From positions 1-23,959 of the IMG/VR virus record IMGVR_UViG_2648501400_000002: DNA of 23,959 bases; one strand, 5' to 3'. A program made the position numbers and the translations under genes. Positions 1-568 of the stretch are shown here, one piece after another. The stretch is from a virus. Lineage: Duplodnaviria; Heunggongvirae; Uroviricota; Caudoviricetes. The notes under the pieces are model-generated. The model was given only the letters and a program-made list of their open reading frames with translations. It made no database searches and was not told the origin of the DNA. Position 1 is the first letter of the stretch; each line of letters begins with the position of its first letter.

Positions 1-82
1 GAAGGAAACTACCGGATGGAAAGAGTCCCCCTAAAGCAGACTGACAGACATCACAAATCCCCGGGTGGGGATTTGTGTATAA

Positions 83-568
83 GAGACAGCAAAACAGGGG
101 GACACAAAAGACACTATTACAAAAGAAAAAAGAAAAGATTATTCGTCCGAGAATTCTGGCGAATCCTCTGACCAGCCAGAAAACGATCTTTCTGTGGTTA
201 AACCGGATGCTGCAATTCAGAGCGGCAGCAAGTGGGGAACAGCAGAAGACCTGACCGCCGCAGAGTGGATGTTTGACATGGTGAAGACCATCGCGCCATC
301 AGCCAGAAAACCGAATTTTGCAGGGTGGGCTAACGATATCCGCCTGATGCGTGAACGTGACGGACGTAACCATCGCGACATGTGCGTACTGTTCCGCTGG
401 GCATGCCAGGACAACTTCTGGTCCGGTAACGTGCTGAGCCCGGCCAAACTCCGCGACAAGTGGACCCAGCTCGAAATCAACCGTAACAAGCAACAGGCAG
501 GCGTGACAGCCAGCAAACCAAAACTCGACCTGACAAACACTGACTGGATTTACGGGGTGGATTTATGA
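83..568 (+). pseudogene. O: Replication initiator O, C-terminal (P-interacting) part only; frame is closed upstream by an in-frame TAA at 80-82
   Basis: Translation ends ...NTDWIYGVDL and runs into the P start, as in lambda O. Upstream in the same frame there are stops at 80-82 and 29-31 and no start codon. The ori iteron region upstream of 90 is diverged from what I recall of lambda. Confidence 0.75.

Follow-up and report, generated by a model that had tools for sequence, protein, structure and literature searches.

What cuts short the replication gene of a lambda-like prophage in the middle of its own origin? The window (the whole stretch of 23,959 nt analysed here) begins a few dozen bases upstream of such a break, and an earlier, sequence-only reading of it had proposed that gene O is disrupted within the ori iterons, with a 19-bp stretch resembling the end of IS50/Tn5 immediately next to the break. 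The following sections trace where the phage homology starts, what the bases in front of it are, how they may have arrived there, and why an origin iteron might have been chosen as the site.

Gene O starts inside an origin iteron

Megablast of window positions 1–600 against 50,697 phage records returned 165 matches, including phage 21, SfI and many Stx phages at 98–99% identity, and every one of them begins at base 90. In complete E. coli genomes, the O match starts at base 90 as well in all matches listed. Compared with the lambda ori/O region, the window is lambda-type O, P and ren at 98–100% identity from this base on, which bears out the earlier placement of the homology at about base 90. 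The alignment to phage ori regions proposed at the time succeeds to the same extent: lambda-type O genes, that of phage 21 included, align from base 90, and none of the 165 phage records aligns upstream. In intact O genes (E2348/69, CD45), the sequence across this point reads ...GGGGGATTGCTATCCCT|CAAAACAGGGGGACAC..., compared to ...GTGTATAAGAGACAG|CAAAACAGGGGGACAC... in the window. The break therefore lies at the centre of iteron 4 (ATCCCTCAAAACAGGGGGA), at codon 141 of a 299-codon O (L002, 2580–3479), and the proposed interruption of O within the iterons is real. Alignment to the intact O of E2348/69 and CD45 identifies the right 13 bp of iteron 4, CAAAACAGGGGGA, at 90–102 (plus strand), of which CAAAACAGG at 90–98 (plus strand) is presumably the right-hand copy of a target-site duplication whose left-hand junction lies outside the window. 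The left 6 bp of the iteron (ATCCCT) would have been displaced to the other side of the inserted DNA, likewise outside the window. Iteron 4 is followed, as it normally is, by an A/T-rich lambda-type origin segment (103–145, plus strand) that is identical to the intact O of the E2348/69 prophage, and that we take, from established lambda biology, to be the unwinding region of ori.

Frame translation and alignment define the remnant of O at 83–568 (plus strand), with codon 141 altered and codons 142–299 unchanged. The remnant has no native start, and the first possible one is a GTG at 194. From 83 down to the stop codon at 566–568, the O frame (frame 2) is uninterrupted, as the sequence-only reading had it for the C-terminal part, and it contains two TAA codons further upstream: the one reported at 80–82 is correct, and the other is found at 32–34 rather than at 29–31, which reads CCC. 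A different frame was rightly described as open across 1–168 (frame 1, closed by TGA at 169–171); the open reading frame at 16–171 that it contains was rejected as a real gene, being an accidental frame across the junction. Downstream, the replication gene P (565–1266, plus strand, 233 aa; Pfam Phage_lambda_P, E = 1e-61) overlaps the O stop and is intact, as are the genes that follow it. In comparison to lambda, both the iteron array and the O frame are interrupted, and iterons 1–3 as well as the N-terminal DNA-binding domain of O lie outside the window. A functional lambda-type O and ori, i.e., a continuous O of about 299 codons with at least four contiguous iterons and the A/T-rich region, is thus not what the window contains.

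The first 89 bases are an end of ISEc13

The bases in front of the break are not phage DNA. Window positions 1–89 are identical (89/89) to the ends of seven full-length copies of ISEc13 (1,549–1,550 bp), all of which terminate in ...GAGACAG; one further copy is decayed and measures 1,500 bp. Positions 1–95 match 1,774 places, which are spread over 1,375 of the 5,426 complete E. coli genomes, on chromosomes as well as plasmids, with at most 31 places per genome. At each place examined, the match to 1–89 is the end of an element with a gene annotated in RefSeq as “IS4-like element ISEc13 family transposase”. The neighbouring genes at these places are pdxI/azoR, araH (interrupted), fklB/cycA and ybaY, besides one plasmid site and two others, and 23 distinct flanks on the outside-end side mark the element as multi-copy and mobile. 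An identity of this kind is far beyond chance, and positions 1–89 are DNA of ISEc13, a catalogued 1,550-bp element of the IS4 family, IS50 subgroup. More precisely, they are the terminal 89 bp (minus strand) of the transposase-upstream end, the equivalent of the IS50 outside end, and represent 89 of 1,550 bp of the element. The transposase ATG would follow, to judge by the reference copies, 77 bp past the left edge of the window, on the minus strand and reading leftwards. With respect to ISEc13 as annotated in E. coli E2348/69 and many other genomes, the window agrees in its end, terminal repeat and subterminal hairpin without any sequence difference; only the insertion site, iteron 4 of a prophage O, is particular to this copy. 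The search for IS-like sequence adjoining the 19-bp stretch, once proposed as a check, therefore leads directly to the interior of ISEc13, and the suggested IS4-family end is confirmed, although probably as the end of a full element and not as a footprint.

The 19-bp stretch itself (71–89, minus strand) is the terminal inverted repeat, CTGTCTCTTATACACAAAT, and equals the end of all seven full copies, so that the coincidence considered earlier gives way to a genuine IS50-like terminal repeat. Read as the reverse complement of 71–89, it matches, as already noted in the sequence-only reading, 17 of 19 bases of the Tn5 outside end (CTGACTCTTATACACAAGT) and 17 of 19 of the mosaic end (CTGTCTCTTATACACATCT), both as printed in PMC2566895. 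Identity to the mosaic end extends over the first 16 positions, and the 9-mer TTATACACA (window 74–82) is common to the ISEc13 repeat and the Tn5 outside end. The terminal-repeat consensus of the IS50 subgroup starts with CW (PMC2266710), and the ISEc13 repeat, about 19 bp long and beginning with 5'-CT, conforms to it. A natural IS end hence equals the engineered hyperactive Tn5 mosaic end, the core of the Nextera adapter, over 16 of 19 bases, which matters wherever tagmentation adapters are trimmed from E. coli data: if a trimmer accepts partial or mismatched matches, genuine reads could be cut off at ISEc13 ends (window 71–89; L001, 2571–2589).

The relationship to IS50/Tn5 extends to the transposase, whose features are known from the identical-ended reference copies, the gene of the window copy lying beyond the left edge. 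Along its whole length, the reference protein of 457 aa aligns with Tn5 transposase structures (PDB 1MUH, E = 7e-84), and it is 39% identical, again full length, to the transposase of a real IS50R copy (blastp). It contains Pfam Tnp_DNA_bind and DDE_Tnp_1 above cut-off, with Dimer_Tnp_Tn5 just under it (24.1 bits against 26.7), and is recognized by NCBIfam NF033590 at 514 bits. ISEc13 and IS50/Tn5 accordingly share the same architecture with a single Tn5-type DDE transposase. Moreover, the far end of ISEc13, CTGTCTCTTGATCAGATCT, is identical in 19 of 19 bases to the inside end of the IS50R copy (L162), which was used as reference because the inside-end sequence was not found in the literature searched; this shared inside end has two GATC sites. 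Apart from the ends, the DNA of the two elements is not alignable. The IS50 subgroup is described as having lengths of 1,350–1,550 bp and flanking repeats of 8–9 bp (PMC2266710); those of ISEc13 measure 8 to 10 bp, compared to 9 bp in the IS50R copy examined, so that a length of about 9 bp is common to both elements. The strong and symmetric target motif of ISEc13 (see below) differs from the weak 9-bp target preference for which Tn5 is known (cited in PMC1525189).

A further distinction from IS50/Tn5 is a subterminal hairpin, CACAAATCCCC-GGGT-GGGGATTTGTG, at 52–77, with 11-bp arms (52–62 and 67–77) that are 100% complementary and a 4-nt loop (located on L001, with positions mapped by subtracting 2500). 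This is the palindrome noticed earlier, in fact slightly longer than described, and the innermost 7 bp of the terminal repeat fall within it. It had been attributed to an iteron region diverged from that of lambda in sequence and length; the bases upstream of 90 are IS DNA instead, and the palindrome belongs to the IS. The 23-mer GGGGATTTGTGTATAAGAGACAG also terminates related elements on 108 contigs of other Gammaproteobacteria (L029–L136, GTDB), with carriers including Neiella, Vibrio, Shewanella, Alishewanella, Aliagarivorans, Photobacterium and a Serratia genome. All relatives carry AAATCCCC...GGGGATTT at the same place, and the inner stem varies by lineage while its pairing is kept: among 18 distinct inner stems, the mean extension is 3.4 bp, compared to 0.56 bp after shuffling (maximum 1.2 in 2,000 shuffles). 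By this measure, the hairpin is a conserved subterminal feature of the lineage. In the relatives, six to eight T follow the hairpin on the transposase-sense strand, and in a Vibrio relative, hairpin and T-run are called as an intrinsic terminator facing inward, which suggests that the structure insulates the transposase gene from outside transcription. In the Alishewanella relative, the hairpin is not called as a terminator because the T-run pairs into the stem. No terminator-like site was found in window 1–620 or in L001 either, since the ISEc13 stem is present and is followed by the tail TTTGTGATG in place of a T-run. Promoter scans of window 1–620 and of the ISEc13 end were likewise negative.

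A probable simple insertion and its alternatives

The arrangement is best explained by cut-and-paste transposition of ISEc13 into the centre of iteron 4, inside the prophage gene O, a reading to which we assign a probability of roughly 0.83. A simple insertion predicts a left junction at which the N-terminal half of O, ...TATCCCT(CAAAACAGG), i.e., ...ATCCCTCAAAACAGG|CTGTCTCTTGATCAG, runs into the IS end CTGTCTCTTGATCAGATCT. Searches for this junction (O N-terminal half, CAAAACAGG and CTGTCTCTTGATCAG) with exact and gapped patterns found none in viral and metagenome contigs. The right-hand IS/O junction is absent from the 5,426 complete E. coli genomes, from species-representative genomes and from metagenome contigs, and is seen in draft assemblies only. 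We thus infer the simple insertion, flanked by the N-terminal half of O, from the right-hand side, the IS body and the left junction being outside the window. A contig end some 90 nt inside a multi-copy element is what a short-read assembly break typically looks like. Because short-read assemblers break contigs in multi-copy repeats, the window starts inside the IS, and it most likely shows one end of a full 1,550-bp element clipped by such a break. Two other assemblies each have an IMG/VR contig with the same junction (L003 and L004), and these contigs end 7 nt and 2 nt past base 1 of the window. Their perfect match to the window extends only to about base 372, after which the divergence is about 2.6%, a pattern that fits one ancestral insertion followed by recombination and repeated hits equally well. 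The case exemplifies how a contig opening with an odd “diverged” region can owe this to a mere repeat-induced assembly break.

The alternative that survives best, while still unlikely, is a rearrangement, in which recombination between ISEc13 copies, or an adjacent deletion or inversion mediated by the IS, removed or relocated the immunity region together with the N-terminal half of O. Beyond the other IS end, unrelated DNA would then follow. This reading would account for the failure to find a left junction among viral contigs, metagenome contigs and complete genomes, although contigs with the left junction are also expected to be missing where repeats interrupt the assembly and storage is limited to virus-like contigs. 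Of the 13 full ISEc13 copies examined, two (L018, L023) have no matching flanking duplications, and recombination between IS copies therefore does occur; a second breakpoint near 20450 in the window moreover suggests a decayed prophage. However, insertion point and flank fit the target motif, as for a primary insertion, at least on this side, and a sister insertion in iteron 1 (see below) is clean, with a 9-bp duplication.

It is very improbable that the junction was made in the laboratory, either as a Tn5 tagmentation (Nextera) mosaic-end adapter or as a chimeric mis-join. The first 16 bases of the repeat are indeed those of the mosaic end supplied in tagmentation kits, and the junction is known from draft assemblies only, but the same junction recurs in three assemblies, where the IS terminus abuts a site of the target motif, and many finished genomes have an annotated chromosomal element to which window 1–89 is identical. 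Adapter contamination would require the exact 19-bp mosaic end together with adapter sequence and was rejected, as the repeat carries two mismatches (17/19) and is neighboured by ISEc13 interior and no adapter. That no transposon is involved, and that positions 1–89 are diverged iterons of another origin specificity with a coincidental 19-mer, has a negligible probability and has to be regarded as refuted: the CCCC...GGGG palindrome at 52–77 superficially resembles an O-binding site, but none of the 165 phage O/ori records aligns upstream of base 90, and the same 89 bases, at 89/89 identity, are found beside araH, azoR, cycA and ybaY and on plasmids, always joined to an IS4-family transposase gene.

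Origin iterons resemble the apparent target motif of ISEc13

If ISEc13 transposed into iteron 4, its choice of site is probably best explained by target preference, as far as a correlation drawn from natural insertions can tell. The flanking repeats of ISEc13 measure 8 bp in seven copies, 9 bp in four and 10 bp in one, and are bordered by CCCY on one side and RGGG on the other. GGG starting +9 to +12 outward from the IS end is found in 35 of 42 unique half-sites, compared to a background of 3.7% (binomial P ~1e-43), and position +1 is C or G in 39 of the 42. The target of ISEc13 is therefore roughly CCCCT-N8-AGGGG, a short symmetric palindrome. Lambda iterons (ATCCCT-CAAAACNR-GGGRA) fit this form, which the iteron ATCCCT-CAAAACAG-GGGGA resembles. 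A weight matrix derived from the 39 half-sites outside iterons places iteron 4 first among the 28,777 positions of an intact related prophage, 2 bp off the observed insertion point, and iteron 2 sixth.

A second case was recovered with both junctions in IMG 2645728091 (L152 and L016), where ISEc13 resides in iteron 1 of a six-iteron O. The sequence reads ...GCATCCCT CAAAACGAG|IS|CAAAACGAG GGAGG..., with a clean 9-bp duplication, and the element shares both its position within the iteron and its orientation with the window copy. This insertion, whose junction is absent from the complete E. coli genomes, is independent of the one in iteron 4. Elsewhere in prophages, ISEc13 is found at the sites GCCCCTGCATAAACAGGGGC and CCCCCTGTGCGGAGGGG in one orientation in some genomes and in the opposite one in others (L014 versus L024/L019/L028, and L161 versus L021/L022), which reflects either repeated independent hits on a hot spot or inversions between copies.

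The relatives of ISEc13 in Vibrio, Neiella, Shewanella, Alishewanella and others (L029–L136) are almost always located in apparent rho-independent terminators. In their 103 unique flanks, positions +1/+2 are mostly GC or CC, and T is found at +15 to +17 in 75–85 of 103. Their orientation is biased because the T-run lies on the outside-end side, and their flanking repeats of 8, 9, 10 and 12 bp span the loop and the upper stem. A tentative hypothesis, to which we give somewhat less than even odds, is that ISEc13 and its relatives in the IS50 subgroup recognize short G/C-clamped palindromes (terminator stems in the marine lineages), that the geometry of the palindrome, and no fixed stagger, sets the 8–12-bp duplication, and that iterons act as hot spots by mimicry.

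The Tn5 family is usually regarded as nearly random in its targeting. In the papers searched, there was no description of such a target preference for the IS50 subgroup and nothing relevant on IS4 elements that target terminators, and “ISEc13” was mentioned in element lists only. The text of the IS4-family review gives the traits of the subgroups, with no target motif for IS50 (PMC2266710). Within the IS4 family, IS231A and ISRm22, the latter in REP sequences, set a precedent for the choice of symmetric or palindromic targets, and duplications of variable length have precedents in the family as well (PMC2266710, PMC1525189). Both elements belong to other subgroups (IS231 and IS4Sa) and use other motifs than ISEc13.

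Other features of the window

In the window, lambda-like head and head-tail joining genes extend up to about 20450, where a second breakpoint (20450–20459) is located. From about 20459, they are followed by a serine invertase gene (20537–21238, minus strand), two tail-fibre cassettes with Collar domains (21181–22081), and a tail-fibre assembly gene and a tail-fibre gene, both on the minus strand. No complete E. coli genome spans the junction at 20450–20459; the tail genes of lambda seem to be lacking, unless the contig is chimeric. Further upstream, between ninE and the HNH/ninG genes, an open reading frame of 590 aa (3264–5036, minus strand) runs antisense to the nin region. This frame matches no Pfam family, is conserved as a “hypothetical protein” in related prophages, and may be a moron or a defence gene. 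Finally, the segment between ren and ninB (1830–2165) is shared with none of L003, L004 and L016, which otherwise match on both sides of it; it contains an open reading frame of 106 aa (1848–2168), also without a Pfam match, and is a typical mosaic patch.

Expected consequences for the prophage

In the proposed event, a copy of ISEc13, encoding a Tn5-like DDE transposase, would have moved by cut-and-paste into the centre of iteron 4, in the orientation that places the transposase antisense to O. Going by lambda biology, the cut at codon 141 would abolish the full-length initiator: the left piece of O would lack the C-terminal part that interacts with P, and the right piece would lack a start as well as the DNA-binding domain. 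At the same time, iterons 1–3 would be parted from the A/T-rich unwinding segment (103–145) by about 1.55 kb. With O cut and the iterons parted from the unwinding region, the prophage is not expected to have a replication start of its own, and, by analogy to lambda, would fail to initiate replication even with O supplied in trans.

Disrupted O genes are common in E. coli prophages. In the assembly collection, 658 blocks have the same C-terminal O remnant of 124 aa annotated as a gene of its own, so that split O genes occur in hundreds of assemblies. At the ten places listed (L138–L147), frameshifts or truncations divide O, with an IS66-family element doing so in L142, and none of these ten remnants is preceded by an ISEc13-type transposase gene. 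The insertion described here is in itself that of a known element and an ordinary prophage-inactivating event, with a modestly interesting site preference, and such IS events account in part for the many E. coli prophages that are stuck. The apparent choice of site would be a simple route to recurrent prophage domestication, and gives a testable sequence preference for a relative of Tn5. If the recognition of G/C-clamped palindromes were true, ISEc13 would be a semi-targeted agent that locks lambdoid prophages in place.
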